Positions 35,072 to 59,576 are shown, counted from the stretch's first letter. The stretch is DNA of 64,000 nucleotides from an uncultured Gammaproteobacteria bacterium (GCA_963748215.1 CAVVHS010000008.1:256001-320000), one strand, 5' to 3'. Made by a program: numbers and translations. The notes: generated from the sequence alone by a model not told the origin.

Positions 35072-35291
35072 TCCCGCGTTCCCACCGCAATAATTCGCGC
35101 AATTCCGCCACGCTTGGTGTACTATCAACCTCGTTGAGGTGAGGCTGCGGCAATCGTCCGTCTCCCGATCCCCGACAAGAGTCTCAGTTGCACGTTATAG
35201 GTTATATCGGAAGTTCCTCTTGACCCTCCTGCACATTTCCTTGCACGTCTTGCGATTGAAAATTTTTATTTTTGTATAGAGGTAAGTTTTA

Positions 35292-35495
35292 ATGGCTACA
35301 GGTACTGTTAAATGGTTCAACGAGTCCAAGGGTTTTGGTTTCATCGCTCCGAGCGATGGCGGTGAGGATGTATTCGTACATTACTCCGCTATTTCCGGCG
35401 ATGGTTTCAAGACACTGGCAGAAGGACAGAGCGTAAATTTCGATGTCGAGCAGGGTCCGAAGGGCCTGCAGGCGAGCAACGTCACGGCCGCCTGA
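35292..35495 (+). CDS. cspA: Cold-shock protein
   Basis: [21 protein letters not shown]. Confidence 0.95.
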
Positions 35496-35517
35496 CCTGC
35501 AATTCAGTCAGCAACAC

Positions 35518-35550
35518 GGGAACCCCGCTTTTCAGCGGGGTTCTTTATTT
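35518..35550 (+). terminator. Intrinsic terminator after cspA
   Basis: GAACCCCGCT/AGCGGGGTTC stem followed by a T-rich run. Confidence 0.8.
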
Positions 35551-35576: not shown

Positions 35577-37508
35577 TCATGCACGCGCGGCACGCTGCAC
35601 CGTCCAGTCACTGGCCGCGAGAAATTCGAAAAATTCATCCGCCGGCAGCGGGCGGCTGATCAGATAGCCCTGCACCATGTCACAGCGCATGGCTTGCAGC
35701 ACGGCCAGCGTCTCCTCGGTTTCCACGCCTTCCGCGATGGTTTTCAGGCCCAGGTTGTGGGCCAGGTCGATCGTGGATCGGACGATTATCGCGTCATCGC
35801 TGTCACTCACCATATCCCTGACGAACGAGCGATCGATCTTCAGCTTCTGCACCGGCATCCGTTTCAGGTAACTGAGCGAGGAGTAGCCGGTACCGAAATC
35901 ATCAATGGACAACTGCACGCCCATAGCGTGCAATCGGTTCAGGATTTCCTGGCTTTGCTCGGGATCCGTCATCACGGCGCTCTCGGTAATCTCAAGCGTC
36001 AGCTGGTGCGCGTCGAGTTCGTGGTAGGCAAGAATTTCCGCCACCTGCTCCGGCAGCTTGTCGTCCCTGAGGTTATGGGCGGAAAGATTGACTGCGACAG
36101 TGAGCCGGTAACCGGCCCGCTCGCAGTGCATGCAAAACCTGACTGCGTGCTCGATCATCTGCAGCGTGAACTGCTTGATGAGTCCGGTCTGTTCGAGGAT
36201 GGGAATGAATTCGACCGGTGAGACCGGTCCGTGCCCGGGCTTCACCCAGCGTGCCAGCGCCTCCGCTCCGACGATCGTTCCGCTTTGCAGGTCGACCTTG
36301 GGCTGGAACGCTGCGCCTATATCCCACTGCTGAATGGCAACGTGCAGGTCACTGATCAGGTCGAGCCGCTGTGGATTATTGGTGTCCAGCCTGGCATCGT
36401 AGACGCAAATATCGTTGCGATTGCGCTTGGCGATGTACATCGCGACATCAGCGCATTTCAGCAGCGCGGAGGGTTGCTCGCCGTGCTCCGGATAGATGGC
36501 GATACCCATGCTGACCCCGACCGAGCAGGCCGTCTGCCCGATGAGTACCGGCGCCTTCAGGGTGGCACCGAGCTGCTCGGCCACGGCAAGCGCCTCGCGC
36601 TTGTCGGTCGCCGGTATCACCACGGCGAACTCGTCTCCACCCAGCCGGCCGATGGTATCTTCTTCCCGGAGAACACTCCTGAAGAGGCCGCCGATCCTGA
36701 TCAGCAACTGGTCGCCCATGACATGCCCCAGCGTGTCGTTCACCTCCTTGAAATGATCGAGGTCGATCATGATCAGCGCAACACCATGGCGGCCATGTCG
36801 TGCGGATATCATCGACTGCTGCAGGCGGTCAAGGATCAGCGTCCGGTTCGGCAGGCCGGTCAACGGATCGTGTACCGCGAGATGCTTGAGTTCGCGGTTG
36901 GCCGATACCAGCTTATGGTTGAGCCTTTCGAGCTTTTCCTTATAGGCCTCGGCGGCCAGCCTGGCTGACTGGAGTTCCTCGAATGACATGGCGTTCTCGA
37001 TCGCGATACTGACCTGACCGGCAAACAGCGAGAGCAATTCCATGTCTTCCTCGTTGAACTCACTGCCGTCCAGCTTGTTGATGCAGGCAATGCCACCGAG
37101 GAAGCGGTGTTTACCGACCAGTGGCACCAGAATCAGCGACCCGGCCTCTTTTTCCCACTGGTTGCGTTCGCTATCGTCCAGCATCTCTATCATCCCGCGC
37201 CACCAGGCACGGCGATGGCGCAACACCCAGCCGCACAGGCCAACCTCGATGGGCAGCTCGGCGCCGAGCAGTTCGTCGGCACTGACGCCGCACGCCGCAC
37301 GATAGATATAGCTGTTGCAGTCGTCGGACATGATCGGAATGGAGACGGTCTCGACCCGCAGCAGTTGCGAGGCACTGCAGGCGACGTGGTCGAACACCTT
37401 CTGCAGATTATGCTCGCCACCGATCATCTGCGTGATCTCGCTGAGCAGATGGATCTCCTGTTCTTTTTGCCTTAGCTGTGCCGCCAGGGATTGTTTGCTT
37501 GTTGCCAC
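35577..37508 (-). CDS. GAF-GGDEF-EAL diguanylate cyclase/phosphodiesterase
   Basis: GAF N-terminus, HDPLTGLPNR, RLGGDEF, EALARW, DDFGTGYSSL, AEGVE. Confidence 0.93.
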   Translation of the reverse strand: MATSKQSLAAQLRQKEQEIHLLSEITQMIGGEHNLQKVFDHVACSASQLLRVETVSIPIMSDDCNSYIYRAACGVSADELLGAELPIEVGLCGWVLRHRRAWWRGMIEMLDDSERNQWEKEAGSLILVPLVGKHRFLGGIACINKLDGSEFNEEDMELLSLFAGQVSIAIENAMSFEELQSARLAAEAYKEKLERLNHKLVSANRELKHLAVHDPLTGLPNRTLILDRLQQSMISARHGRHGVALIMIDLDHFKEVNDTLGHVMGDQLLIRIGGLFRSVLREEDTIGRLGGDEFAVVIPATDKREALAVAEQLGATLKAPVLIGQTACSVGVSMGIAIYPEHGEQPSALLKCADVAMYIAKRNRNDICVYDARLDTNNPQRLDLISDLHVAIQQWDIGAAFQPKVDLQSGTIVGAEALARWVKPGHGPVSPVEFIPILEQTGLIKQFTLQMIEHAVRFCMHCERAGYRLTVAVNLSAHNLRDDKLPEQVAEILAYHELDAHQLTLEITESAVMTDPEQSQEILNRLHAMGVQLSIDDFGTGYSSLSYLKRMPVQKLKIDRSFVRDMVSDSDDAIIVRSTIDLAHNLGLKTIAEGVETEETLAVLQAMRCDMVQGYLISRPLPADEFFEFLAASDWTVQRAARA

Positions 37509-37652
37509 TCTTTACATCCTTGTAAAGATCCGTCACAGGAAGAATTGATTCCGGCACCGGAATCCATGGCACCTCAGACCGTATCGGCTATGGGCGGGGG
37601 GTGCTTTAGATGGCGCCTCGCGCCAGCGAGGGCAGGATACAGGACGAATAAT

Positions 37653-37698
37653 TGGAGCCGGCGACAGGAGTCGAACCCGCGACATCTTCATTACAAGT
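37653..37698 (-). repeat. att site: 46-bp duplication of the tRNA-Thr 3' end
   Basis: Identical to 46254-46299. Confidence 0.92.
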
Positions 37699-38066
37699 CG
37701 GTATAAGCTAATGATTAGCAATAACTAGCGACAAATAACAACAGTATAATTAGCCAGATAGCCCACTCCATTGGTTGCTGTTTGTTGCTAATTTATGTCG
37801 TTATTTGGCAGCAAGTGCGCCACCAGCGCGCCATGGCAAATGCGGCAGCCACCCTCTATCGGAATTAAACTAGAGCCAGGTTGTCGTCTCTAATTTTACG
37901 GGGATATTTTTCTTCCCCCGTCACTCTTTTCTTTCGCCACAATCAGCCCTGTCTGGTAACGTCATAACTCACAGCCAGGTCCTGCTCGCCGCGCCCATTG
38001 GGAAGCTAGGACATGCGCTGCCACCCTTCGGGTTGGCTTCGCCTTCCTGAATGTCCGAAAGCGGAC

Positions 38067-39654
38067 GATAGTGTTGAAAAACACCTCATCAGGAAGAGCG
38101 CATGAGATAATGTCGCTGCGTTTAAACATATGAGGATTCTCGCCCATGATGGGTCAGTTACCCGCTGCGCAAAATGCCTTGTTTTACGATTTTTGTCTTG
38201 AACGCCGCATTCCCTCCGATCATCTTCTCCGTCAAATAGACCAGTTCCTCGACTTCGACCAGATTCGCCAGCACCTCCAGCCTTTCTATAGCACCACCGG
38301 CCGTCCTTCCATCGATCCGGAGCTCATGATCCGGATGCTGCTGGTGGGCTACTGCTACGGTATCCGCTCAGAGCGCAGGCTCTGCGAAGAAGTGAACTTC
38401 AACCTGGCCTACCGCTGGTTTTGTCGGCTAGGGTTGGAGGCCGATATGCCTGATCATTCGACCTTCTCCAAGAACCGTCATGGACGCTTCCGGGAAGCGG
38501 AGACATTCCGCTATGTCTTTGAACAGGTGCTTAAACGCTGCATGGTGGAAGGCCTGGTCGGGGGTGAGGGTTTTGCCGTGGATGCGAGCATCGTGAAGGC
38601 GGATGCCAGCCGCCAACGTCATCGGGATGACGATGATGATTGGGGTGGTGGCCGTGCGGTGCGTGAGTACCTCGATGCACTGGACGAGTCTGCTTCGCAG
38701 GCCGGTAAGTCAGCACGGAAGATCTCGCCGACGGACCCGGCGGCCAGTTACACAGCAGCACCGGGTGGTCCGGCATTCTATGCCTACTCAAACAATTACC
38801 TGGTTGATACCGGCCATGGGATCATCATGGATGTCGAGTCGACCACGGCCAATCGGACACAGGAGGCTGAATCGACCAAGACCATGGTCGATCGGGTCGT
38901 GAATCGATTCGGGATCAAACCAAAACGCCTGATCGGCGATACTGCTTACGGCACAGCGGCCATGCTCAACTGGATCGTCGAGATAAAGCAGATCGAGCCA
39001 CACACACCCGTGTGGCAGAAGTACGAAGGGGAAGCAGGAATGTTTGGGATGGCTGACTTCACTTGGGATGCCGAGACTGACCGTTACTTGTGTCCGGCAG
39101 GAAAGTTGTTGCAACGCTATCGACGCGACCTAAAAAAAATAAACGCACCGGCATCACAAAGGCCAATACCATTATATACCGTGCCACTGAACACGATTGT
39201 GGAGACTGTGAATACAAATCACGCTGTTGCCCTAAAGTACCTCGGCGCAAAATCACCCGGAGTATTTACGAGTCGTCGCGCGAAGTGGCCCGTGCAACCG
39301 CACAAACACCTGCTTACAAGAAGTCACGCCTTCAACGAAAGAAAGTGGAGATGCTGTTCGCGCACATGAAGCGCATATTAAAGCTGGACCGTCTACGATT
39401 GCGTGGTATGAGCGGTGCGCATGATGAGTTCCTGCTGACAGCAACAGTACAAAACTTACGCAGGATGGCGAAACTGCTCAGTCAACCACCACCAGACCGC
39501 AGGATAGGTGCGCTCGCATGACAGAAAATCAACCGCTTTAACCACCAAAGTCCATCATCTGAACCGGTGATGGCACTTCAAGAAGATCACCCCTTGGCTG
39601 ATGACTTGCCGCGGCTACCGCCATCATCCAAATAGCGACTTTTTCAACACTATC
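38067..39654 (+). mobile_element. IS1182-family insertion sequence
   Basis: Inverted ends GATAGTGTTGAAAAA / TTTTTCAACACTATC; GGAC target duplication (38063-38066, 39655-39658). Confidence 0.88.
38146..39521 (+). CDS. IS1182-family transposase (frameshift in an A-run near 39135)
   Basis: GRPSIDPELM, SERRLCEE, PDHSTFSKNR, VDAS..KADAS, RKKVEMLFAHMK. Confidence 0.9.
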
Positions 39655-40183
39655 GGACAACAGTTGCCATTCCCCTCGACACAGAAAACCCGCTGATGCG
39701 GGATTCCTAATTGGCGACTATCGATTCAAGCCGGATGTTTAGCCGCTTCTTATATCAACGATCACTTATCGGGAAAGAGCGACTACTTCCCGATGTTTTC
39801 AAACTGTCATTCGCTCGGCTTCAATAACATGTTCTCGTTCTGTTGCCAGCACCGCTTCGCCATTACCACGTAGCGTCTCTGCAAAAGTATTCTAATCGCC
39901 CTGTCGACACTGTTTCTCACCAATGCGTCTCACAAATAGTTCTGTCTATATTTGTGAACTGGATCATGCATGAATAATCTGGATTGGTCGATTTAATATA
40001 TGACGTTACGGAAGACGCCGTATTTATAAACCCCACATGTTGGGTGCTGTGTGCATGGCATCCGTCTCCATCGACTGATTAATCGCTAATGCGCTCAGCT
40101 TGGTGGCGGTCGCTACCGGCGGGGGCACGTAAACGGCACAGTCTCCCGGCCATGCCGATTTTATAGTCAACAGAGGAATTACG

Positions 40184-40891
40184 ATGAAAACTATCAGTCA
40201 ACTTCCCATCAGAGCCTTGGTTATAGTCACGATAGCCGCCATTGTTGGGTTGGGTGCCAGCAGTGCATATGCCGCCTCGGTCTACTTCTTGCAGATCGAC
40301 GATATCAAAGGCGAAGCCACTGAACGATCCCATAAGGACTGGATAACGATCAACAGTTTTTCATGGGGAATCAACAACCCCGGATCGGTTGGAACAGGCG
40401 GCGGAGCATCTTCCGGCAAGGCAATACTCTCTCCATTCTCCTGGACACAGTTCCTCGATATGAGTGTACCGCCGATGTTTGTGGGGGTTGCATCCGGGAA
40501 GCATTACTCGAAGGCGACACTGGATGTACAGAATGTAGCAGCGGGGACAGCAGGTGTGTATTTCCAAATGGTATTCGAGGATGTGCTTCTGACCTCACTA
40601 AACATTAGTGGTGCTGGTGATATTCCGGGCGTTTCCGGGGCGCTTGAATATTCGAAGGTCACCATGACCTATCGGCAGCAAAAAGCTGATGGCAGTTTTA
40701 ACACGCCGATCATTGGCGGTTGGGATTTGAAGAAAAACACTGCTGATGCGTTTTTTGGTTCACCGGCAGTACTACAAGGCCTGATCTTGGCAGGACCGAC
40801 GCCGGCCGCAGTACCGGTGCCTGCGGCGATATGGCTCTTCGGCTCCGGCCTGCTGGGACTAGTCGGCATTGCAAGACGCAAGAAAGCCTAA
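40184..40891 (+). CDS. Hcp1-like domain with signal peptide and VPLPA/PEP-CTERM sorting tail
   Basis: FLQIDDIKGE...HKDWITINSFSWG...Y.QQKADGS...GWDLKKN; tail VPVPAAIWLFGSGLLGLVGIARRKKA. Confidence 0.85.
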   Translation: MKTISQLPIRALVIVTIAAIVGLGASSAYAASVYFLQIDDIKGEATERSHKDWITINSFSWGINNPGSVGTGGGASSGKAILSPFSWTQFLDMSVPPMFVGVASGKHYSKATLDVQNVAAGTAGVYFQMVFEDVLLTSLNISGAGDIPGVSGALEYSKVTMTYRQQKADGSFNTPIIGGWDLKKNTADAFFGSPAVLQGLILAGPTPAAVPVPAAIWLFGSGLLGLVGIARRKKA

Positions 40892-40906
40892 CCAGTTACA
40901 AAACAG

Positions 40907-40929
40907 CGGCTCCTTCGGGAGCCGTTTTT
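40907..40929 (+). terminator. Intrinsic terminator
   Basis: CGGCTCC-TTCG-GGAGCCG-TTTTT. Confidence 0.85.
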
Positions 40930-41308
40930 CATTACGCGGTATGTCTGAGTTTGGCCGGCTCCAGTTCTGCGCCACTGCTTATTTGGGAAATCAGTAAGGC
41001 ACAGTAACTTACCCATTCCTGACGATCCATGTCTAAGACCAAACAGTACGCGTCATTAATGTGCTACAGATTCTGTTTTATTGGCCGAATATCATGCCGG
41101 TACTGATGGTATTACCTGACTATAAATAATAACTGCGAGTAACACGGAGCATGACAAGCAGATTATCCGAACCTGCATTAACAATGCCCGACAAGATGAA
41201 CGGCTACTGGAAACAGCAGGTGTCTTACAAAAGACATCCACGGAGCGTTGCAGTCGGCTCTGCGGTTCATAAACGCCAGGACGCCTTTATCAAACAAGGA
41301 GAATTAAC

Positions 41309-41965
41309 ATGAGATTTACCGTGAATAAATCACGACTTATTGGCACAGTATGCGCTACAGCGTTTAGTTTTATCGCTGCGCCAATGGCCGCGAACGCAGC
41401 CATTATTGACTTTGAAGATATCTCCATCCCTGCAAGCAGCATTAGCGGACCATCGCAAACATCCGGAGGTTACTCGTTCGTGAACACCACAACCACGAAT
41501 GACGACATATTAGCTGTGCGGCTATCATCGGCATGCGCAGGTGGATGCGTTGATAACGGCACGCAGTATCTCGCAGTCTTTAATTCAGATCAGACCGGAC
41601 CATTCGAAGTCGAAATGACACGCAATGGTGGTGGGTTATTTGATCTACTTAGCTTCGACTTTGCGTCGTTGTTCAAATTTGTTCCCGCTTCAGGTACCGA
41701 AGTGCTGGACGTTATCGCTACAGCGCCAGGGGGCGTAACCGTTTCGCAGCGTTTCAACTACGACAACATAGGCGACGAATTTCAAATTGCAATGCTTGGT
41801 AGTCAGTTCTCGGGCCTGCAATCCGTCTTGTTTAGCTCCCAGTTTATTTTTCCAGCTTATGACAACATTGAGGTCTCAGCAGTCCCTATCCCCGCAGCCG
41901 TCTGGCTTTTCGGCTCTGGCCTGCTGGGTCTAGTTGGTATAGCAAGGCGCAAGAAAGTAGCTTAG
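41309..41965 (+). CDS. VPLPA/PEP-CTERM surface protein
   Basis: Signal peptide ending ANA, IIDFED start, FDLLSFD, tail VPIPAAVWLFGSGLLGLVGIARRKKVA. Confidence 0.85.
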   Translation: MRFTVNKSRLIGTVCATAFSFIAAPMAANAAIIDFEDISIPASSISGPSQTSGGYSFVNTTTTNDDILAVRLSSACAGGCVDNGTQYLAVFNSDQTGPFEVEMTRNGGGLFDLLSFDFASLFKFVPASGTEVLDVIATAPGGVTVSQRFNYDNIGDEFQIAMLGSQFSGLQSVLFSSQFIFPAYDNIEVSAVPIPAAVWLFGSGLLGLVGIARRKKVA

Positions 41966-41987
41966 TCCTTTCGGCACTCATACTAAG

Positions 41988-42010
41988 CGGCTCCTTGGGG
42001 AGCCGTTTTT
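41988..42010 (+). terminator. Intrinsic terminator
   Basis: CGGCTCC-TTGG-GGAGCCG-TTTTT. Confidence 0.85.
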
Positions 42011-42170
42011 GATTGTGCTGAATGTCCATTTGTGGCTGCCGGTTCCTTTCCTACAGGATTGTCTTATATTAAGATTCCGTTCAACTGGGGTGACGTCGAC
42101 TTCAAGCCGACCCATCTAAGACATTTCGGCAAAATTATCTAAACGGCAGAAAGGCAAGCGGAAAGCGGAC

Positions 42171-42230
42171 ATTGAACGTCCAAGCTCAGCCTCGCCGTAA
42201 AACGGCGTCGGCTGAAACGTCGTGTTAGAT
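42171..42230 (-). mobile_element. attC site (~60 bp)
   Basis: Minus strand ATCTAAC-ACGAC-GTTTCAGCCGACGCCG-TTTTA-CGGCGAGGCTGAGCT-TGGAC-GTTCAAT, 10 nt after the stop of 42241-42750. Confidence 0.8.
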
Positions 42231-42240
42231 TTCATCAGCA

Positions 42241-42750
42241 TCATCTGGGCTTATACCTTTCCTCAATGATCGATTTGCTGGGAGCCTGGATTTTCTCAAG
42301 ATTCTCTAATTGCCTGATAGCATCATCAATCATGGCGTCTTGTTGCTGCAATGCAGCTTGATCGAAACCCCCATTATTTTCCATCTTAATGCGGAACAAT
42401 TGCATTTTAGTCAGAAAATTTCTCAAAATATGATTTGAGGCATCCAGCATGGTTTTGTATATGGCATACTTTTCAGCCTCCTGTGCTTTGACTTCGTTAG
42501 CATGATAATCAGCAAAAATACCAAAAGCCACGAGCAATATCAGAATGGTAGATCTCATCCATAATTCATTAAAAGCAGAAGGTATAACCTCAAATTCCAG
42601 CTCGCCGTACAGAAAATAATGAATTGTGGAATCGAAAAACCAATATGAGAGTGCCAACAAAATAGCAATCTTCAAGAAATAATGCTTCGATTTCACATCA
42701 TTTCCTATCGTGGATTTAGCATTAGAAGACCTAATGTCTTTTTTAAACAC
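42241..42750 (-). CDS. Hypothetical two-TM membrane protein (cassette gene)
   Basis: 169-aa ORF, two hydrophobic segments and a helical tail, followed by attC. Confidence 0.65.
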   Translation of the reverse strand: MFKKDIRSSNAKSTIGNDVKSKHYFLKIAILLALSYWFFDSTIHYFLYGELEFEVIPSAFNELWMRSTILILLVAFGIFADYHANEVKAQEAEKYAIYKTMLDASNHILRNFLTKMQLFRIKMENNGGFDQAALQQQDAMIDDAIRQLENLEKIQAPSKSIIEERYKPR

Positions 42751-42914
42751 GATACTTTGAGACCTATCCCCAAAGGTGCCTTTTAAATTTATCAGGCGAC
42801 TTGTTAATAATAATTATGTCAAAAACAGGTCACTATACATTCTAATCACGCACTCTATGACTATCAGCGGGTCGCGCATGTGCAATTGTGGTCCGGAAAC
42901 CTTTTTCTCTTCAT

Positions 42915-43520
42915 TCAAGCCGACGCAGAATAAGATTGAAAGTCCAGGGCGGTGGGAAGCAATCGTTGCAGTATAGTCGGATCATTCCGGGTTTTGGCGA
43001 TTAGCATGCAACCTTCAAAATAGGCCAGAAATGCTTCGGCCTTCAAATCGACGTCTGTGAGTGCCAGTTCCCCGGCATCGACTGCGTCTTGCAAGGTGCC
43101 ACGGATCAATTGTTTGAAGTCCATGAACAACCCGTTCAGTTTTATGCGAATGGTTTCATCCTGGGTGGAAAGCTCCGAAGCCAGGTTTCCAAAGGGACAA
43201 CCGAGCACGTGGCCGGTCTTTTCGTATATGCTAATCTGGTTGTCAATGATCATGTCAATGAATCTGGACAGACGGGTTAGCGGTGGCAGGCTAGGATCAA
43301 AGGCCTTATCCAAAACAGATTCCTTCATATCGGAATAAAAGGCATCGATAACTGAAAGAGTGAGCTCCTGTTTACTTTTAAAATAATGGTAGAAAGTGCC
43401 CTTTTGAACCTGTGCCTTTTCACAAATTGCAGCCACTCCAGAATCCGCACAGCCACTGGCGTACATCAGATCGCGGGCTGATTCCAGTATGCGCTGATAG
43501 GTGTCCGTTTCCTGCCTCAT
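42915..43520 (-). CDS. TetR-family regulator (NemR/ComR-like)
   Basis: KGTFYHYFKSKQEL HTH, GCPFGNLASELS. Confidence 0.9.
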   Translation of the reverse strand: MRQETDTYQRILESARDLMYASGCADSGVAAICEKAQVQKGTFYHYFKSKQELTLSVIDAFYSDMKESVLDKAFDPSLPPLTRLSRFIDMIIDNQISIYEKTGHVLGCPFGNLASELSTQDETIRIKLNGLFMDFKQLIRGTLQDAVDAGELALTDVDLKAEAFLAYFEGCMLIAKTRNDPTILQRLLPTALDFQSYSASA

Positions 43521-43554
43521 GCGGCAATAGTAGTTGACCGGTCGGTCAAGTCAA
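43521..43554 (-). promoter_or_regulatory. TetR promoter with palindromic operator, probably leaderless
   Basis: TTGACT-N16-TACTAT-N6-ATG; palindrome TTGACC-GGTC-GGTCAA at 43534-43549. Confidence 0.7.
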
Positions 43555-43705
43555 GCCCGTGCCAATTTTAGCTTCAAAAAATTATTGACAGGATGATTAT
43601 CAGGGCAATTGCCCTCGTGAGGCAGGCATTGAAACGAAGCGCTTATGGTCCGTTAAATGCTGTGCCCCGTTCGTAGTTGATTCGGAAATTTGGCCAGTCA
43701 TCACA

Positions 43706-43777
43706 ATCCCAAACCCCACTACAGTCTGGCTCTTCGGCTCCAGCCTGCTGGGATTGGCTGGTGTATCCCTGGCTTAA
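43706..43777 (+). pseudogene. Orphan, decayed VPLPA-CTERM tail
   Basis: IPNPTTVWLFGSSLLGLAGVSLA* with no upstream ORF, followed by a degenerate copy of the same terminator. Confidence 0.7.
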
Positions 43778-44205
43778 GAAAGCCGCTATATGTCTGAATA
43801 GCGGTCCTTAGGGGCCGTATTGAATTTGTGCTAATGGCAGGAGAGTGGCAGATCCCGGTCCTACACGAGGCGCTTATATAAGATTTCGCCAACCGGCAGG
43901 AGTCGACCCTAAGCGGAAGTACAGGAATTTTGCTTAAAGGTCAGTAACGTACTGAATCCTGACATCCAGTTCTGGTGGCCGACATCGTTCGAACGGCTGA
44001 ACTTATATGTTATGTTTGTTTTTCTTGGCGAGCCATTCAAAGGAATGCTAATAGTTATAAGAAGAAAATACTATTTTCCTTATTGACTGGATTGTTGAAA
44101 ATCTCACCTGTTGGGAGCGCCGCTATCAGGTCAGTAATGTTCTGAAAAGAATTACAGGCCGCTGCCAACCAGTGCATTACCACAATCCATTTAGGAGTTA
44201 GTCTT

Positions 44206-45399
44206 ATGCCTCTGGTTTATATGGCTGACATGTTGCATCACGCGTACGAGAACAACTATGCCGTAGGTGCTTTCGATGTAGTGAGCCTGGATTTTATTTC
44301 AGGGGTTATGGCAGCCGCCGAGGAAAAACACGCGCCGGTTATCATCAGCTTGGCTGAATCTCACTTTGAATACTTCGATTTTGAACTACTCATGGCGTCG
44401 GTGGTAAAGGCAGCGGAACGCTCAACTATACCTGTGGCGATTCATCTGGATCACGGCGAATCCCTTGAGTCAGCCGTGTGTGCGATTAACCTTGGCTGCA
44501 CCGGCATCATGGTCGATGCGTCAAATCTGCCTCTAGATAAAAATATCGCTCTAACACGGACCGTAGTTGACATGGCCCATGCCTGCGGCATCCCTGTTGA
44601 GGGGGAGCTGGGCTATGTACCTGGAGTGGAAGGCGAGGATGCTGAACGTCACCCCGGAGATGTTCAATATACGACTGTCGACGAGGCAAGACGCTATATC
44701 GATGAGACCGGCGCAGATTTCCTGGCTGTCTCCATAGGTACAGTTCACGGTCGAATGAAAGGTGAGCCGAAGCTTGATATCGAGCGTCTCGCGCAGATCA
44801 ACCAGGCCCTGAAACTGCCACTCGTGATCCATGGAGGAACCGGGTTGCGTGATGACCAGTACAGGAGTCTCGTCGATAACGGTGTTACCAAAATCAATTA
44901 CTACACGGCTCTGGCCGATGTGGCAGGACAATGTATAAAGGGCAACGTAGAAACAGAAACGAATTGCAACTATACAAGCTACATAGACGGCATAGCTGGG
45001 GCAGTACAGCAGGAAGCAGGACGTTGCATTGACATCTGGGGTTGCTCAGGACGTGCCAGCTCAATGCTCGCGAGCTGTCGCCCGTGGCTTCCTGTCGAGC
45101 ATGTGATATTTTTCAACACTGGAAAGCTTGATGCAGCTGCAACAGAAGATATGATGTCCGAGGGTAGACGGGTCCTTGGCAGTATACCGGGTGTACAACG
45201 GGTATTTACCGGTCACGCTGTCACCGAGGATAGCCCTTATAGGCATTGTTGGATGGTGCAATTCTCTGCCCGTCCTGTTATCGATAGCTATCGCGAGCAC
45301 CCAGCGCACCAACACTTTGCTGACAGTCGCTTTCGTCCCCACGCTGGTGATCGCCTGAGTATCGATTTCGAAGCGTGCAGCACGAAAGAAATAACATAA
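44206..45399 (+). CDS. Class II fructose/ketose-bisphosphate aldolase with C-terminal Dabb-like domain
   Basis: YAVGAF, IHLDHG, VEGELG, LAVSIGTVHG, LVIHGGTG, KINYYT; C-terminal YREHPAH..F. Confidence 0.88.
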   Translation: MPLVYMADMLHHAYENNYAVGAFDVVSLDFISGVMAAAEEKHAPVIISLAESHFEYFDFELLMASVVKAAERSTIPVAIHLDHGESLESAVCAINLGCTGIMVDASNLPLDKNIALTRTVVDMAHACGIPVEGELGYVPGVEGEDAERHPGDVQYTTVDEARRYIDETGADFLAVSIGTVHGRMKGEPKLDIERLAQINQALKLPLVIHGGTGLRDDQYRSLVDNGVTKINYYTALADVAGQCIKGNVETETNCNYTSYIDGIAGAVQQEAGRCIDIWGCSGRASSMLASCRPWLPVEHVIFFNTGKLDAAATEDMMSEGRRVLGSIPGVQRVFTGHAVTEDSPYRHCWMVQFSARPVIDSYREHPAHQHFADSRFRPHAGDRLSIDFEACSTKEIT

Positions 45400-45616
45400 C
45401 CAGAGTTCAAGTATTGAACACATATTTTTTGCTTTAACAATGAAGGATAATTATTTGTCTGTTAGACAAATGCAATGGCAGGCCGGGAATGGCAATTTTT
45501 GCTGCGTTCCAGTCGTTCGTCAGTTCACCGGGAACGGCAAGTTCTGGCCGATAGTCGCTGATTAGATCACCCGCATCAGCGGGTTTTGTGCGTTCAGGGA
45601 ACGGCAACTGTTGTCC

Positions 45617-45774
45617 GATAGTGTTGAAAAACTCTGCTACTAGAAATCGACCGCGCACGAGAGTGAGATGCTTTGTCATTTTGCAAAATATTTCGGATTT
45701 CAGGAAACCCTCATGCACGATTTCTACATGAACATTATGACCTCAGTAGATCATTAGAGTTTTTCAACACAATA
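45617..45774. mobile_element. IS1182-type MITE (158 bp)
   Basis: Ends GATAGTGTTGAAAAACTC / GAGTTTTTCAACACAATA; GTCC target duplication. Confidence 0.8.
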
Positions 45775-46253
45775 GTCCGCTTTCGGACATTCACCAACCC
45801 GAAGGGTTGTAGCGCATGTCCTTGCTTCCCAATGGACTTGCCACAGGACCTGGCTGTGAGTTTTTGAAGTTATCAGACGGGGCTGATTGTGGTGTAGGAA
45901 AAGGCTGGCAGAAATATCCCCGTAAAATTGAAGACGACCACTACCGCTATGACTAATCAGTAAAATAAAAGGTGGGCTCGACATTTCATGGCGTTGCGAC
46001 AATTAATCTTCGGGTAAATGGGAAGCGGTCTACTGCCATTGCCCTAAGCAGGAATCCCCCCTACCCCCTTCGTCAAGCAAGCGTGAGCGAGGGGAAAAAC
46101 CCTGCATACTAGACATCTGATGAAGGCGCCCCTCTTGGCATGGGACTTTTGTGAATATACGAGGGGAAATTACATCGAGACACAGAAATGCTAGCCCATA
46201 TGCTAGCCAGAATCGATTGCACAGTATGATTTCGTTATAACTATATGATTCAG

Positions 46254-46329
46254 TGGAGCCGGCGACAGGAGTCGAACCCGCGACATCTTCATTACAAGTG
46301 AAGCGCTCTACCAACTGAGCTACGCCGGC
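46254..46329 (-). tRNA. tRNA-Thr (TGT)
   Basis: GCCGGCGTAGCTCAGTTGGTAGAGCG...CTTGTAA...GGTTCGACTCC...CCA, 76-nt cloverleaf. Confidence 0.97.
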
Positions 46330-46389
46330 ATCTTGGCCATCAGGACAAGGCGCCCTATTCTATTGAATTGCCGGTTTACCTGCAATTAA

Positions 46390-47061
46390 TCAGCCTGTCA
46401 CAGGCAGGCAAGCGCGCAGCTGCAGATCCGGGTTCTCTTCGAGCACATCGTCCAGCACCGGCGCGGCCGCGGCCCGACCCTGGAATTCCAGCCAGTAGGC
46501 GTCCAGCGTGATATAGCGCGTCTCGAGGATTGCATTCAGCCCCAGCTGCCGCACCTGTGACAGGCGGATCTCGGCGCGCGAGATGTCCTTGAATGTGCCA
46601 AGGGACATGAAATTATCCTTGCCGATGTAATATTCGTGGTCATTCCGCTCATCCAGCATTTTCGCGATCTGCAGGGCCTCCCCGCGTTCCATCGCCGGCA
46701 GATAAATCCAGTAGCCACTCTCCTTCCTGTCCTCGGCGATGCGCTGTCTTGGCTCCAGACCGAGTTTGCCCGCCACTGCGTGCAGCGCCTCCTCCGCGTA
46801 GAACGGCCCCAGCACCTGGCATGCAGCCGGCATGCCCGCGCCCGGTGGCTGCGACAGGGTCAGTGTGTCGATGCCTGACATTTCCTGTTCCGGCGCCGTC
46901 GCGGACTGTTGTTTCAGTTCCTGCAGGGTCACGAGCGGCTTGGCGGTGGCCGGCAGCGGCGGCAATTCGCGCGCCGTTTCGCCCGCCGTCCCGCTACTGA
47001 ACAGGTTCCAGCCGAAGTAGGCCAGGTTGGCGACAAGCAAGAAGTAGACAAGGTGGCGCAT
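46390..47061 (-). CDS. SPOR-domain protein, copy A
   Basis: LLVANLAYFGW anchor, C..LGPF, YWIYLP, SLGTF; paralog of 59577-60242. Confidence 0.8.
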   Translation of the reverse strand: MRHLVYFLLVANLAYFGWNLFSSGTAGETARELPPLPATAKPLVTLQELKQQSATAPEQEMSGIDTLTLSQPPGAGMPAACQVLGPFYAEEALHAVAGKLGLEPRQRIAEDRKESGYWIYLPAMERGEALQIAKMLDERNDHEYYIGKDNFMSLGTFKDISRAEIRLSQVRQLGLNAILETRYITLDAYWLEFQGRAAAAPVLDDVLEENPDLQLRACLPVTG

Positions 47062-48995
47062 CAGTGTTCTCCGGCGAGTATGGCGATTCCTTTCAGGACC
47101 ATGTCTGCATCGTATCTGGCGACAAGCCCGAGCAGCGGCACCAGCCGCTGCGCATCGCCGCCGGTAATCACGACCGCGGGCTGCAAGCCCGTACTGGCGG
47201 CCATGTCAGTTGCGATGCGCTCGATTGCCGCTGCCGCTGCATACAGGCTGCCGCGGCTGATCGCCCCGGAAGTCGTGGTCGCCAGTGATACAGGCGCCGG
47301 CTCGTCGTGCGGAAGCGGCAGGTCTGCGGTATGTGCACATAACGCCTGCTGCATCATCGTCACGCCGGCGAGGATCAGGCCACCGCGGTGCACGCCGCCC
47401 GCATCGACCAGGTCCAGGGTGATGGCGGTACCGCAATCCACCACGCACACCACATCACCGGTAGCCTGCCAGGCTGCGATCATCGCCGCCCAGCGATCGG
47501 CGCCGAGCAGTGCGGGCTGCGCATAGGCATTGGTCACCCCGGCGGCCTGCCGGCCGGCACGGATGAAGTGCGGACGCACCTGCCAGGACCGCTCGACCCA
47601 GGCGCCCGGCCAGTGCGTCACCGGCAACATTGGACACCAGGACACGCCCGGGCGCCGCCAGCCTCCCCCAGGCCTGCTCCAGTTGCCTGACCAGGTCGCT
47701 GCCACGATGCACAAATTGTCCACGCCTTTCGAGTTGCTGTCCGCTGGCCAGTGCCCAGTTGACGGATGTGTTGCCAATACGACATCACCCCGTCTTGAGT
47801 AGCAGTCATGTTTAGAGTCCGGATGCTACTGTAGCCGATTTCCTGGCCATTGTCTGGTGTAGGCGGCAGATGTCAGTCCCCCCAACGCGTTCTTCGCGTC
47901 TCTCCTCGTTGTATTCACACCGCCAGGCTTCGATGATGATCTGGCCATGAGCCAGGTTCAGGAACCAGTGCTCATTCAGGCATTCGTCGCGCAGCCGCCC
48001 GTTGAATGACTCGATGTAGGCATTCTGGTTCGGCTTGCCCGGCTCGATCAGAGTGAGCTTCACCTGGCGGGTATGCGCCCAGGTCAGCATGGCGCGTCCG
48101 CAGAACTCCTTGCCATTGTCGGTGCGGATCACCCGCGGCAGGCTGCGGCTGACAGACAGTCCGTCGAGAATCCGCGTGAGCATCAGATCACCGATGGCCC
48201 GTTCCGGCACGACCGCGACCGATTCGTGCGTGGCATCATCGACGATCGTCAGGCACTTGATGAACCGCCCCTCGGCGCTGCGATCGAACGCGAAGTCCAT
48301 GGACCAGACCTCGTTGGCGGCGTCGGGACGCACCAGGGGCTGGCGCTCGCCACCGGCACCTTCTTGCGCTTGAGCCGTTGCACTTGCAGACGGGCTTCCG
48401 TGTAGAGCCGCTCGACACGCTTGTGGTTGACCACCAGGCCCCGCTGGCGCAGCTTGAGGTAAATCATGCCGTCTCCGTAGCGCCGGTGCCGGTGGGCGAG
48501 CGCCACGATCGTCTCCCGCAGGACTGCGTTGCGGTCCGGGGCCGGCTGGTAGCGCAAACTGCTCGCGCTCATGCCGCGCATGACGCTCTGAGAGGCCCCG
48601 AGCCATCATCCTCCGCACCACCTCGCGACGGGCCAGCGCGGTCACCACTTTTTTCGCAGCACCTCGCGGGTCGCCTCCTGTTCCAGTATCGCCTCGGCCA
48701 GCAGCTTCTTGAGACGGGCATTCTCCGCTTCCAGAGCCTTCAGCCGTTTGGCGTCCGACATGCCCATGCCACCGTACTTGCCGCGCCAGAGGTAGTAACT
48801 GCCCTCCGAGAACCCGTGCGACCGACACAGGTCCTTGACGGATACCCCGGTGTCCGCTTCGCGCAAAAACCCGATGATCTGCTCGTCTGAATACCGATTC
48901 TTCATGTCCAATCTCCTTCCGGTTATGGGATTGGACTCTAAATCATCATGCTACTCAAATAGGGGGTGACGTCGAATATCCACCAGCAGGTTCAT
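47061..48995 (-). pseudogene. coaX: Type III pantothenate kinase copy A, interrupted by IS3 and frameshifted
   Basis: MNLLVDI at 48995, IS insertion, then GNTSVNWA...LGADRW...VVDCGTAIT...TGGDA. Confidence 0.85.
47780..48974 (-). mobile_element. IS3-family (IS407-group-like) element, degenerate orfB
   Basis: ~40-bp inverted ends, AATA target duplication, orfA MKNRYSDEQII (48642-48905), A6G slippery site, orfB WSMDF/TDNGKEF/IESFNGRLRDE. Confidence 0.9.
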
Positions 48996-49107
48996 GTCGC
49001 CATTCGCACGCTGACCTCGCCGGATGTGAAACGCCTGCGCCCGCCATCCGTATCCACCAGCAGCGCACCGCCCGCATCGGTGCCGCGGGCGGTACCGCGC
49101 ACGACCG
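48992..49107 (-). pseudogene. birA: 3' fragment of birA (copy A)
   Basis: [33 protein letters not shown] matches the C-terminus of 60982-61962. Confidence 0.85.
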
Positions 49108-56975: not shown

Positions 56976-59042
56976 GTGTTAACAAAAGTCTTTCCTTTCC
57001 TCAGATGGTTCCCACCCAGCGCTGAAAACCTGCGCGCGGACCTCATCGCCGGCATCACGATTGCGATGATCCTCGTTCCGCAGAGTATGGCCTATGCATC
57101 GCTGGCGGGCCTGCCCGTGGTGTACGGTCTGTACGCCTCGTTTCTGCCGGTGATCGTGGCCTCCCTGTGGGGCGCCTCGCGCTTCCTGCACACAGGTCCG
57201 GTGGCGATGCTGTCGCTGATGTCTGCGGCGGCAATCGAGCCGCTGGCCAGCCGCGGCAGCGATGAGTTTATCCAGTTATCCCTGCTATTGGCGCTGCTGG
57301 TCGGTGTACTGCGCCTGGCTTTGGGCCTGTTCCGAATGGGCGTACTGATCAACCTGGCCTCGCACCCTGTCATTCTGGGTTTTACCAACGCCGCGGCGCT
57401 GATTATCGGCCTGTCGCTGCTGAACAGTTTCCTGGGTGTGCCGATGCCGCGTTCGGATATTTTTCTCGCTGACCTGTGGCAGGTGGTAGCTCAGTTCCCG
57501 CTGCTGCACGCCCCGACGCTGCTGTTCGGCCTGGGCACGTTGGCGGTATTGCATATGTTGCGGGCGCGCTTCCCCAAGCTGCCCGGGGTGTTGATCGTGG
57601 TGGTCGCCGCCACCCTGATCAGCTCTGCCCTGGACTTCGAGAAAGTCGTGACCATTGCACCGCAGCAGGTCACCGACGCATCGGTACGCGCCAAGTTTGA
57701 AAAACTGATGGGCGAGGAGGCGCGGCTGAAGGCGGTCAAAACCGAACAGAAAGCCATCAACGACCAGCTCGCACAGCTCGGCGCCACTGACCGCAAGGCC
57801 TACACCCTGCAGGCGAATATACTGCGCCTCAAGGGTGAGGAAAGCAGTCTCAAGCACAGCCTCTATCGTGAGCGGGTCGAGACCTTCAGCATCGCGCTGG
57901 TGCCGAAGTTACTGGGTAACGGACAGGCAAGTTATGTGGTGGCTGAAGACATCAGCCCCTTCACCACCGTGTGGCGCTGGTCTGGTTACACCGGCGACCA
58001 GTTTAAACTGTCAGGCGGCGGCGCCGTGGTCGGCACCATCCCCAGTGGTCTGCCCGGTTTCAGTGTGCCAATCCTGGATCTTGGTATCATCACCACCCTG
58101 TTACCGGTGGCGTTCATCATGGCCATGATCGGCTTCATGGAGGCGACGTCGATCTCCCGTGCGCTGGCGGCGAAGACCCGCGAAAAACTCGACCCCAATC
58201 AGGAACTGATCGGACAGGGTCTGGCCAATATCGTGGGCAGTTTCTTCCAGTCGTATGTCGTGAGCGGCTCCTTCTCGCGTTCGGCGGTAGCCGCGCGGGT
58301 CGGTGCGAGGACAGGTTTCTACGCGGTCGTGAGCGCTCTTGGCGTCCTGCTGGTGATATTGTTCTTCACAGATTACCTGTACCACCTGCCCAAGGCCGTG
58401 CTCGCTGCCATCGTCATGAGCGCGGTGTTCGGGCTGATCGATTTCAAGTCGATGGTACACGCCTGGAAAGTGCGCCGCGTGGACGGCATTGTTGGCGTAA
58501 CCACCTTTATCACAACCCTTATTCTGGCGCCCAAGCTGGCAGACGGGGTTTTGGTCGGCGTAGCGTTCACCATCCTGCTCTTCCTCGCCGGCACCATGAA
58601 GCCGCGCAGCGAGGTACTCGGACGCCGCGCCGACGGCTCGTTGGCCGGCGCGGCCACGCACGACCTGGCACCGATCAGCGAAAACTACGTGGTAATGCGC
58701 TTCGACGCCTCGCTGGTCTTCATCAATGCTGCGCATTTCGAGCAAGCGGTGCTGAAGTCGCTGAGCGAGTTCCCGCGCGCCCGCGCCATCCTGATCATCG
58801 GCCAGGGCATCAACCGGATCGATGCCACCGGCGAGGAGAAACTCCGTGCGCTCACGCGCGACCTGCAGGCTGCGGGTGTCACGCTCTTACTTTCAGGGCT
58901 GAAGAAGCCGGTCATCGAGGCGCTGGAGCGCGCCAATCTCGAAGCGGTGATAGGCAAGGAGAACATCATCAGCAACAAGGAGGCCGCACTGCGTGTGCTT
59001 GCGCAGCGCTACCCGGAAGACGAGGTCAAGCAGGTAGCCTGA
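56976..59042 (+). CDS. SulP/SLC26 transporter with STAS domain and a large coiled-coil insertion
   Basis: DLIAGIT..LVPQSMAYA, NQELIGQGLAN, GSFSRSA, FINA, RIDATG. Confidence 0.92.
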   Translation: MLTKVFPFLRWFPPSAENLRADLIAGITIAMILVPQSMAYASLAGLPVVYGLYASFLPVIVASLWGASRFLHTGPVAMLSLMSAAAIEPLASRGSDEFIQLSLLLALLVGVLRLALGLFRMGVLINLASHPVILGFTNAAALIIGLSLLNSFLGVPMPRSDIFLADLWQVVAQFPLLHAPTLLFGLGTLAVLHMLRARFPKLPGVLIVVVAATLISSALDFEKVVTIAPQQVTDASVRAKFEKLMGEEARLKAVKTEQKAINDQLAQLGATDRKAYTLQANILRLKGEESSLKHSLYRERVETFSIALVPKLLGNGQASYVVAEDISPFTTVWRWSGYTGDQFKLSGGGAVVGTIPSGLPGFSVPILDLGIITTLLPVAFIMAMIGFMEATSISRALAAKTREKLDPNQELIGQGLANIVGSFFQSYVVSGSFSRSAVAARVGARTGFYAVVSALGVLLVILFFTDYLYHLPKAVLAAIVMSAVFGLIDFKSMVHAWKVRRVDGIVGVTTFITTLILAPKLADGVLVGVAFTILLFLAGTMKPRSEVLGRRADGSLAGAATHDLAPISENYVVMRFDASLVFINAAHFEQAVLKSLSEFPRARAILIIGQGINRIDATGEEKLRALTRDLQAAGVTLLLSGLKKPVIEALERANLEAVIGKENIISNKEAALRVLAQRYPEDEVKQVA

Positions 59043-59448
59043 GGTAAGGGGCGGCACCCGCGTTCAGAAAACAGGCAAGACGATTGCTTCTTCATCATCC
59101 CGTGTCGTGGATGCCCGTTTCTGCTGTACCTCATGGTTTCCGGGAACGTCCGGAGCCGGCCGCCGGTTCAGGTGATCGACGCAATACAGGCGTGAAACAT
59201 TCCACCGGTATTTGTAGCCCCGTCAGCTGCGGGGCAACCGCGTCTTGCTCAGCCCCGAGGTGGTACCGACGTATCCTAGCGGTCGTGAAGGGACTGCCGT
59301 GTCAATCCAATCCCGTCCTGCGAACGTGAGTGTCAGGCAGAGGATCGGCGCCGGGAAGCGCAAAAGAGAGACGACCACCTGGCCAGTGCTACAGACCCAG
59401 CACGGGGGATGCCAACTTCGAGCGAAAATTATGTCTTATTGATTAACA

Positions 59449-59509
59449 TGGAGCCGGGGAGAGAAATCGAATATCCGACATCCCTTACGAGTGAAGCGCT
59501 CTGGCCCGC
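59449..59509 (-). pseudogene. Decayed tRNA-Thr copy
   Basis: TGGAGCCGG...TCGAA...CGACATC..TTAC.AGTGAAGCGCTCT, D-arm region deleted; same position next to the SPOR gene as the intact tRNA. Confidence 0.75.
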
Positions 59510-59576
59510 ATCCTGGCCAGTGGCCAAGGGTTGGTTTTCCATTGAAAGGCCGTGGAATCTGCAATTCGGGCGCCGG

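Follow-up and report, generated by a model that had tools for sequence, protein, structure and literature searches.

Sites proposed as gene-cassette boundaries in a gammaproteobacterial tRNA-Thr island: a lineage-wide intergenic repeat family that may serve as a landing place for IS1182-family elements

In the window, the whole 64-kb stretch of DNA that was analysed from an uncultured Gammaproteobacteria bacterium, most of the ~30-bp sites listed in an original prediction as those of an integron-like cassette system are real, but as pieces of conserved repeats. The explanation we prefer, to which we give an even chance, is that they belong to a lineage-wide intergenic repeat family comparable to REP/BIME or ERIC, whose units are preferred landing places of IS1182-family elements and which here lie inside an island at a tRNA-Thr gene. 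The island, its boundaries and its genes are as follows.

37653..37698, no strand: the final 46 nt of tRNA-Thr in a second, distal copy, forming the left island boundary; 100% identical to 46254-46299
37699..46253, no strand: the island, 8.55 kb, about 45-50% G+C in a 60% G+C genome, no integrase
40184..40891, + strand: Hcp-like protein with a VPLPA/PEP-CTERM sorting tail (PF05638, PF07589, TIGR03370), followed by a terminator at 40905-40926 and an arm-type head at 40940; repeat D6
41309..41965, + strand: PEP-CTERM protein (TIGR03370, NF038120), followed by a terminator at 41985-42008
42241..42750, - strand: 169-aa ORF that matched 0 families in profile searches
42915..43520, - strand: TetR-family regulator (PF00440, PF16925)
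43704..43775, + strand: remnant of a PEP-CTERM gene tail (repeat D4), with a terminator at 43801-43818
44206..45399, + strand: class II fructose-bisphosphate aldolase fused to a Dabb domain (PF01116, PF07876), with 80 related loci
46254..46329, - strand: tRNA-Thr(TGT) (ARAGORN; Rfam tRNA 70.6 bits), whose 3' 46 nt (46254-46299) are the right-hand repeat

The proposed consensus, AAYGKC-N18-GHCRTT, matched strictly once in the window, at 45488, and with up to two mismatches it fitted 4 of the 11 listed sites (39710, 43937, 45488 and 45533). At that tolerance the whole window held 107 strand-matches versus 73.4 ± 11.2 in shuffles; they were scattered across coding DNA, with 12 inside 39655-45792, a region making up 9.6% of the window. 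Within the island locus (L019, window 36400-47900) there were 18 matches versus 14.6 ± 5.2 in shuffled DNA, a number reached by 56 of 200 shuffles. The 30-bp consensus in its first wording is not enriched, and the expectation that the motif would stand out from shuffled island DNA failed. Across the genome, intergenic DNA had the half-site GAAYGKC at 0.67/kb, no more than the 0.72/kb of rough ORF calls. When 13 site stretches were folded as single-stranded DNA, none was clearly better than its shuffles, the best being 38040-38070 (z -2.35, 5/200 shuffles) and 43932-43972 (z -1.78, 12/200 shuffles).

What the listed sites consist of became apparent from repeat searches. Two pairs, 42021 with 42084 and 43833 with 43892, are each the two ends of a single copy of a ~95-nt element, which we refer to as R1. 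The recurring spacers noticed earlier, CTTATAT(T)AAGATT, proved to be the best-conserved block within R1, so that this observation held. Sites 40940 and 42021 are part of a duplicated gene tail and terminator (repeat family D6), while 45488, 45533, 45600, 39650 and 39710 lie within two inverted copies of a ~270-bp repeat cluster, S. Sites 40997 and 42142 were unsupported by every search made. The description of ~30-bp sites stands for most of them, as parts of conserved repeats with inverted arms, and lacks support for these two and for the consensus as written. A further possible site, at 59145, comes from a reading of the sequence alone.

42022..42125, + strand: R1 copy, degenerate, with a 13-nt insertion (nhmmer E=1.1e-10; Infernal 45.3 bits); holds sites 42021 and 42084 and the spacer at 42063
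43837..43924, + strand: R1 copy (nhmmer E=1.6e-19; Infernal 77.1 bits); holds sites 43833 and 43892 and the spacer at 43873
43937..43966, + strand: dyad unit with a GTACTG core, 240 nt upstream of the aldolase gene, its place kept in relatives (alignment A4)

R1 is present in 21-22 copies in this genome, where nhmmer placed them between rough ORF calls or in short calls of at most 120 aa, with the exception of one partial copy inside the longest-start call of a Na/Pi transporter ORF. Of the 54 genomes from the taxonomic family that were scanned with Infernal, 49 contained it, covering 5 of 6 genera and 23 of the 26 good-quality genomes. Its copies share a mean column identity of only about 55%, and R1 as a whole is not a palindrome. 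RNAalifold returned 0 pairs and no hairpin, and its arms showed no covariation (arm pairing 61.1% versus 62.1% in shuffles). GTACTG dyads occur only twice in the genome, the second at C8:82900-82930. In the dyad alignment the centre is invariant and the arms are degenerate, with arm pairing of 65.4% versus 59.3 ± 2.3 in shuffles (6/500 shuffles) and weak covariation.

Since R1 is conserved block by block, without RNA structure, across five genera, it could be a cis-regulatory module: R1 and the dyad would then form a protein-binding platform upstream of single-gene units, many of them encoding PEP-CTERM surface proteins, and be kept by selection. We consider this unlikely. It agrees with the presence of R1 within 900 nt of 8 of the genome's 24 PEP-CTERM-type genes, with the distance of about 110 to 610 nt (mostly 110-480) that separates R1 from a co-oriented ORF in this genome, and with the fixed place of the dyad upstream of the aldolase gene. 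In a hand tally on rough ORF calls, R1 opposed both neighbouring genes in 1 of 20 copies in this genome and 4 of 37 in relatives; its block conservation and this orientation bias are as compatible with a selected function as with a selfish repeat. However, in the hand tally roughly one copy in every three to four lacks a co-oriented gene downstream, lying in a convergent gap; R1 occupies convergent and divergent gaps about equally. The downstream genes share no common function. No sigma-70-like promoter was found in the elements (6 in the region versus 8.7 expected), and sigma-54-like sites were not enriched: where the background is 0.30 per 500 nt, 8 of the 24 PEP-CTERM-type genes had a loose match, among them only 1 of the 8 that are linked to R1. 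Haft et al. 2006 (PMC1569441) describe a PEP-CTERM upstream box as a motif that ends in TTTACA and precedes a sigma-54 -24/-12 site. Like the box described there, R1 is non-coding, conserved and close to PEP-CTERM genes that form single-gene units with long intergenic regions, but the combination of a TTTACA-ended motif and -24/-12 site is absent here. Regulation would also leave unexplained the insertions and break points described below.

Cluster S, to which sites 39710, 45488 and 45533 belong, is interrupted by a mobile element in each of its copies.

37880..38062, + strand: left copy of S, outer part; inverted repeat with 45759-45941; ends in the 5' half of a split unit (GAATGTCCGAAAGC); uninterrupted in a relative (G006:C226)
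38063..39658, + strand: IS1182-family insertion sequence; transposase ORF 38146-39369; 20-bp ends GGACGATAGTGTTGAAAAAC
39659..39723, - strand: left copy of S, inner part; inverted repeat with 45549-45634 (I1, I3); holds the 3' half of the split unit (AACAGTTGCCATTCC) and site 39710; contiguous with the outer part in G006
45485..45612, + strand: three direct arm heads at 45485, 45530 and 45597 (repeats D11, I1, I3)
45549..45612, + strand: right copy of S, inner part; ends in the 5' half of a split unit
45613..45778, no strand: 166-bp miniature element with 20-bp ends identical to those of the IS
45779..45941, - strand: right copy of S, outer part; starts with the 3' half of the split unit (GCTTTCGGACATTC); placed by its inverted-repeat match and the comparison with G006

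The IS transposase scored 295.7 bits with NF033551, above the family cut-off of 270, and carries DUF772 and DDE_Tnp_1 domains. The 166-bp element, which has near-identical copies at C9:216068-216236 (96%) and C7:345236-345403 (92%), three in all, and 20-bp ends in common with the IS, fits a MITE. R1 was itself considered as a MITE and rejected on near-identity, given its column identity. The IS and all three copies of the miniature element are each flanked by a 5' arm and a 3' arm. That two of the sites are split by insertions was borne out: G006 carries the unsplit unit, GAATGTCC...GCCGTTCC, with its surrounding segment, and a few interior bases differ. No target duplication was visible at the IS or the miniature element, nor relative to the unsplit unit in G006. 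A second IS1182-like IS adjoins a truncated R1 at C8:81939.

The units that receive these insertions share the inverted arms GGAAYGKC…GMCRTTCC, the basic unit being 30-38 bp. Short units made of the R1 arms and the R1 left interior, without the R1 middle, were found at C1:29823, downstream of the aldolase gene in G018 and, in reverse, in G006. In the explanation we prefer, the basic unit would be a 5' arm GGAAYGKC with the inverted 3' arm GMCRTTCC, and R1 the same kind of unit, enlarged in its middle by about 60 nt of conserved sequence. Palindrome-seeking IS1182-family elements would favour these units, as suggested by the one IS, the three miniature-element copies and the second IS1182-like IS found in them. 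A precedent is IS1272, of the IS1182 family: according to PMC5678879 and PMC4923244, it targets hairpins, leaves no duplication and carries a metabolic gene. The likeness of our elements to IS1272/TnSha1 as presented there extends to the transposase family, insertion in the middle of an inverted repeat, the lack of a target duplication, the loss of a few target bases and metabolic genes adjoining the IS. They differ in that the same papers report IS1272 targets without a common sequence, whereas the targets here have common arms, and in that transposition here is read from sequence and carriage of genes by the IS is conjectural.

Comparisons with relatives, which are metagenome bins with short contigs and, as kin, not independent of each other, revealed that homology breaks repeatedly at the elements. 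Between this genome and one of its two closest relatives (G054) it is lost immediately past the R1 block CGACCC at two loci, the two positions agreeing to within about 4 nt, and in the other (G055) a block ends 6-7 nt outside an R1 arm. For the aldolase unit, homology at 7 loci begins in the R1 3' end or the dyad and stops 0-106 nt past the stop codon; its flanks are unrelated in all pairs but one same-species pair, even at 94% identity (55 pairs, 11 loci). The genes nearby have diverse functions (36 proteins matched 37 families, each seen in at most two of them), and three loci of relatives (L052, L053 and L047) are arrays of co-oriented single genes, each with an R1. Under our preferred explanation the break points may have been caused by IS1182-type insertion or by recombination between repeats: gene content would change at the units because new DNA keeps landing there and the units are dispersed repeats, and single-gene blocks would then come to resemble cassettes.

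The repeated breaks at elements keep alive, at low odds, a reading in which modules are exchanged. In its broad form, which we regard as improbable, R1 and the arm-bounded units are junctions at which single-gene modules with their own upstream regions are exchanged by a second, non-integron route beside the classical integron, with a fixed join after CGACCC or in the dyad centre made by IS1182-type transposases or an unrecognised enzyme. Quite improbable, in our estimate, is the specific form in which R1 and the dyads are recombination sites of such a system, with strand exchange right after CGACCC or in the GTACTG centre and an enzyme encoded elsewhere. For dedicated joining sites speak the two breaks at the R1 3' end, which agree to within about 4 nt and are more regular than random repeat recombination predicts, and the IS at the same place, along with the unrelated flanks of the aldolase unit, the relatives' single-gene arrays with their mixed neighbours, and the invariant dyad centre between degenerate arms. 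Against them, no candidate enzyme was found: the only full-length tyrosine recombinase frames in the genome are two Xer-like frames and intI, none of them near the sites, and PF00589 gave no hit on the island contig. The expected co-occurrence with a tyrosine recombinase was not seen in or near the island. The unenriched consensus, the R1 arms without covariation and the near-equal convergent and divergent placement of R1 also count against joining sites, as does the lack of joints between sites inside the island in contigs of the X5 metagenome beyond what a paralogue explains, although rare forms may escape assembly into contigs.

For the island as a whole, the tRNA repeat is where movement takes place. 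Both closest relatives have an empty island site and one X5 contig joins 37652 to 46254 directly, so that gain and loss in these comparisons map to the 46-bp tRNA repeat and not to the sites. The idea that breakpoints fall on sites has partial support from the repeated breaks in relatives and none from the presence or absence of the island. With a direct repeat made of 46 bp of the tRNA 3' end, a low G+C and a site that is empty in close relatives, the island resembles tRNA-gene genomic islands; unlike these, it lacks an integrase gene. In our preferred explanation, repeats and genes would ride in it, gained or lost as one piece.

The genome's sole integron integrase, intI (TIGR02249, 443.7 bits), with an in-frame TGA, lies at C2:97400-98338 on another contig, adjoining its own canonical attC array. 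This, and arms that carry AAY...RTT like the outer boxes of attC, would suit canonical attC sites in a cluster lacking its integrase, a reading we hold to be very improbable: a model built from 15 sites of that integron gave 16 hits across the genome, of which 14 were in the C2 array and none was in the window, and R1 has neither a hairpin nor covarying arms. Integron arrays resemble the region in having sites between single genes of mixed function, breaks near the site 3' end and AAY/RTT outer triplets. They differ in their attC sites with conserved AAC/GTT boxes and hairpins, in their adjacent integrase, and in holding co-oriented short ORFs with one site each, whereas in the window both strands carry genes, each gene has a long upstream region of its own and a gap holds 2-4 sites. 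Because the consensus is unenriched, no hairpins, R1 arm covariation, nearby recombinase or attC hits were found, genes on both strands have long upstream regions and the presence or absence of the island falls on the tRNA repeat, a recombinase-driven cassette system is not supported. What remains of the integron-like proposal is that the sites have inverted arms in common, are split by an IS and coincide with gene-content differences among relatives; recombinase core sites are not supported by consensus, folding, covariation or a nearby enzyme.

REP/BIME and ERIC repeats of Enterobacteria and Pseudomonas are short inverted-arm units between genes, clustered with conserved linkers, family-wide, oriented with transcription, and hot spots for IS insertion and rearrangement; the repeats here broadly share these features, with arms that are inverted in the consensus. 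REP/BIME-type repeats reach hundreds of copies per genome and have a GTAG head and a RAYT (Y1) transposase flanked by its repeats, whereas here there are tens of copies, weakly complementary arms and no GTAG head. Of the 5 Y1_Tnp frames in the genome, the ones at C9:70-73 kb and C2:110-113 kb have flanking repeats of the GTAG type that differ in sequence from those described here, so that the RAYT-like genes go with other repeats. This, together with the 21-22 copies, low for REP-type repeats, the ~55% column identity and the folding of the window's units no better than shuffles, weighs against the explanation we prefer, as does the result that R1 flanks show no visible target duplication and that no partner element with R1-like ends was found.

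A limited search on Thiogranum repeats and IS1182/REP targets returned no paper on such repeats in this group. If our reading holds, they would form a so far undescribed repeat family of uncultured sulfur-cycling sediment Gammaproteobacteria that marks gene-content change, and IS1182-type elements would be able to have a sequence-defined palindromic target; this would aid annotation of genomes of the group and explain assembly breaks. Were the improbable module exchange true, it would be a second way, besides integrons, to stack single genes. Among public records, those closest to the aldolase gene come from bins labelled Thiogranum or Ectothiorhodospiraceae.

The window corresponds to C8:256001-320000 of the source genome, G000 (3.52 Mb, 9 contigs, 60% G+C), and the predicted sites lie in a region of about 45-50% G+C. 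Based on rough ORF calls made in this analysis, the following genes were identified there:

38146-39369, IS transposase
40184-40891, Hcp-like protein with a VPLPA/PEP-CTERM sorting tail
41309-41965, second protein with a VPLPA/PEP-CTERM sorting tail
42241-42750, minus strand, ORF without a family match
42915-43520, minus strand, TetR regulator
43704-43775, PEP-CTERM tail remnant
44206-45399, class II aldolase with a fused Dabb domain

The stretch 39655-45792 had been proposed to hold an undescribed gene-cassette system on the basis of 30-bp sites of the form AAYGKC-N18-GHCRTT. This consensus has one strict match in the whole window, and with up to two mismatches it recovers 4 of the 11 listed sites. 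At that threshold the window contains 107 strand-matches versus 73.4 ± 11.2 in shuffles; these are dispersed over coding sequence, and the stretch, which makes up 9.6% of the window, contains 12 of them. At the locus of the tRNA-Thr island described below, 18 matches were found versus 14.6 ± 5.2 in shuffled DNA, a count reached by 56 of 200 shuffles. Genome-wide, half-site density between rough ORF calls was not above that inside them, and when 13 site stretches were folded as single-stranded DNA none clearly beat its own shuffles. The motif as written therefore fails the original prediction's own test, enrichment over shuffled island DNA. As to the regularity of the sites, the arms are real, but the 6-8 degenerate bases alone are indistinguishable from chance. 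A further possible site at 59145 (GGGAACGTCC..), between ORFs 56976-59042 and 59409-60707, was matched by no repeat model.

Using BLAST of intergenic pieces against the genome followed by iterated nhmmer, we found a longer repeat, R1, of ~95 nt (consensus TGAAnGnC...TTCTGGCCGATCCCGGTCCTACAnGAGACGCTTATATAAGATTTCGCTAAnCGGCGGGAGnCGACCCAnnTCGGACGTTTAG) in 22 copies. Its arms are ..AAYGKC on the 5' side and, inverted, GMCRTT.. on the 3' side. The predicted sites at 42021 and 42084 are the two ends of one window copy, and those at 43833 and 43892 are the ends of the other; the recurring "spacers" are likewise real, corresponding to the most conserved block of R1. Copies in the source genome lie between rough ORF calls or within short calls (<=120 aa), except for a partial copy inside the longest-start call of a Na/Pi transporter ORF. 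Of 54 genomes from the taxonomic family, source genome counted, 49 contained R1 according to a sequence-only model, the relatives being mostly fragmented bins and, as kin, not independent samples. Carriers come from 5 of 6 genera, include 23 of 26 genomes of good quality and have between 1 and 27 copies; G002, G010, G036, G042 and G047 had none. Copies often line up in series, with one for each gene. Of the 24 PEP-CTERM-type genes of the source genome, 8 have R1 within 900 nt, and other neighbours of R1 there include homologues of 6-phosphogluconate and glucose-6-phosphate dehydrogenase, ornithine carbamoyltransferase and the Na/Pi transporter. In relatives, the neighbours were 36 proteins from 37 Pfam families, each family in <=2 proteins.

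The elements do not appear to act as RNA, as no Rfam family was found there and RNAalifold predicted 0 pairs. The idea that the R1 block GGAGTCGACCC derives from a tRNA-like sequence was also rejected: no tRNA model matched it, and local alignment to 43 tRNAs gave scores of 9-11, with reversed controls at 10-11. Block-wise conservation without RNA structure suggests that R1 may bind a protein, and R1 could be a cis-regulatory element. A hand tally, based on rough ORF calls, has R1 co-oriented with its 3'-side gene in 14 of 20 copies in the source genome and 23 of 37 in relatives, and opposite to both neighbours in 1 of 20 and 4 of 37, respectively. However, R1 is about as frequent in convergent as in divergent gaps, and no promoter pattern was found at the elements; neither a sigma-54 PEP-CTERM box nor sigma-70 promoters within the elements were detected. 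For these reasons we rank cis-regulation second.

Shorter arm-bounded units of 30-38 bp, among them a dyad, bear the same arms as R1:

C1:29823, downstream of the aldolase gene in relative G018, and in relative G006 (reverse): unit with the R1 left interior, without the R1 middle 60 nt
45485 and C8:78480: unit with interior ..TTTTGCTGC..
43937: dyad with a GTACTG centre

By coordinate comparison, 6 of 11 dyad matches begin 17-18 nt past the end of a listed R1 copy.

Transposable elements have inserted into such units. A ~270-bp repeat cluster flanks the cargo on both sides, in inverted orientation. The equivalent position in its two copies is occupied by an IS (38063-39658), with a transposase assigned by score to the IS1182 family, and by a miniature element of 166 bp (45613-45778) that has the same 20-bp ends. 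The miniature element has two further genomic copies (96% and 92% identity), and all four insertions lie between a 5' arm and a 3' arm. On contig C226 of G006 the cluster is uninterrupted and the unit GAATGTCC..GCCGTTCC is whole, which confirms the predicted "IS-split sites" and shows that insertion into the unit occurred without target duplication. We had considered that a composite transposon comprising the IS, the cargo and the miniature element had entered a perfect 14+14 palindrome; this was dropped because G006 reveals that the flanks are a single segment present twice in inverted orientation, both times split at the same unit. IS1272, of the same family as the window IS, is likewise reported to insert without target duplication and to have carried a metabolic gene as TnSha1 (PMC5678879; PMC4923244). 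A second IS1182-like IS adjoins a truncated R1 at C8:81939.

The mechanism to which we commit, with belief and doubt in about equal measure, is that the arm-bounded units are REP/BIME-like repeats recognised by IS1182-type transposases. The R1 middle part and IS-carried genes would, we infer, also have been inserted, and such insertions, with recombination between dispersed copies, would change gene content at units. The tRNA-associated island would then move the whole set at the tRNA repeat.

The evidence for this island is as follows. The last 46 nt of tRNA-Thr (46254-46299) are repeated exactly at 37653-37698. In relative G054 (flanks 95% identical), a single contig carries both flanks, the left one running to 37698 and the right one starting at 46246, with an overlap of 54 nt; G055 has the same arrangement, and one contig of metagenome run X5 joins 37652 to 46254. 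The flank overlaps and the X5 joint thus identify 37699-46253 (8.55 kb) as a single unit of gain and loss. No integrase was found in it. Contig C7 of G055 carries the island's left end, followed only by an IS21 before the contig ends. Among other joints, in contigs that cannot reveal rare forms, 40954>45615 (runs X1, X4 and X5) matches a paralogous locus at C9:216019-216236; 40916>41998, 40887>43873 and 45505>42038 were set aside for short sides or a small-share run; and 37683>46305, which includes 20 intervening nt, resembles another tRNA.

We compared the aldolase unit in 19 of 80 loci. For the 7 nearest, the part homologous to the window begins in the R1 3' end or dyad and stops 0-106 nt past the stop codon. 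Across 11 loci (55 pairs), flanks were common to only one pair, from the same species; another pair has 94% identity within the aldolase unit with flanks not shared. At two separate loci, homology between the source genome and G054 is lost directly after CGACCC, a block of R1, and in G055 a core block stops 6-7 nt outside an R1 arm, with 11.1 kb of the source genome absent. The opposite side of one such gene served as a control: there, homology with G054 and G055 reaches the query edge. Gene-content breakpoints were predicted to fall on the sites; homology does end at the elements, but the island itself moves as one at the tRNA repeat. Three R1 copies, a PEP-CTERM gene and the second IS1182-like IS lie in the region C8:71965-83098, about 11.1 kb between two core genes that are about 485 nt apart in G055.

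These breaks favour a cassette-like reading, in which R1 and the units are dedicated joining sites of module exchange. Against it, only three full-length tyrosine recombinase frames exist genome-wide, and one is the integron integrase intI (C2:97400-98338; TIGR02249, 443.7 bits; one in-frame TGA), which adjoins its own classical attC array with small ORFs outside the window (C2:80000-98400). This chromosomal integron has 14 canonical attC sites (C2:85165-96765, minus strand); a model built from it finds 16 sites genome-wide, including lone matches at C8:37345-37422 and C4:100132-100196, and 0 in the window. R1 arms pair no more than shuffles (61.1% of cells versus 62.1%). Dyad arms pair at 65.4% versus 59.3 ± 2.3, with a covariation score reached by 9 of 500 shuffles, weak evidence at best. 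Window genes also lie on both strands. We consider dedicated sites unlikely, and retain them mainly because of the regular break after CGACCC, which lies outside what REP/BIME-like repeats and IS1182-type transposases explain.

Elsewhere in the genome, tandem GTAG-type palindromic repeats, a different family from the window repeats, adjoin Y1_Tnp (RAYT-like) genes at C9:70205-73525 and C2:110405-113623. Close to these repeats, three tandem 80-nt repeats lie at C2:106271-106510, the second and third 98% and 63% identical to the first. Within the window, a cspA thermoregulator family match (35170-35548; 87.9 bits, gathering score 78) lies between a GGDEF-EAL gene and the island. Just past the tRNA, an ORF (47812-48828, minus strand) that carries IS3/IS481-like rve integrase-core domains is bracketed by a 33-nt inverted repeat (47788-47820 / 48933-48965). 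Two paralogous blocks at 46416-47257 and 59597-60438 (76-77% identity) span a type III pantothenate kinase homologue as well as an ORF of 223 aa, and a further 128-nt repeat occurs at 48976-49103 and 60966-61093 (87% identity).
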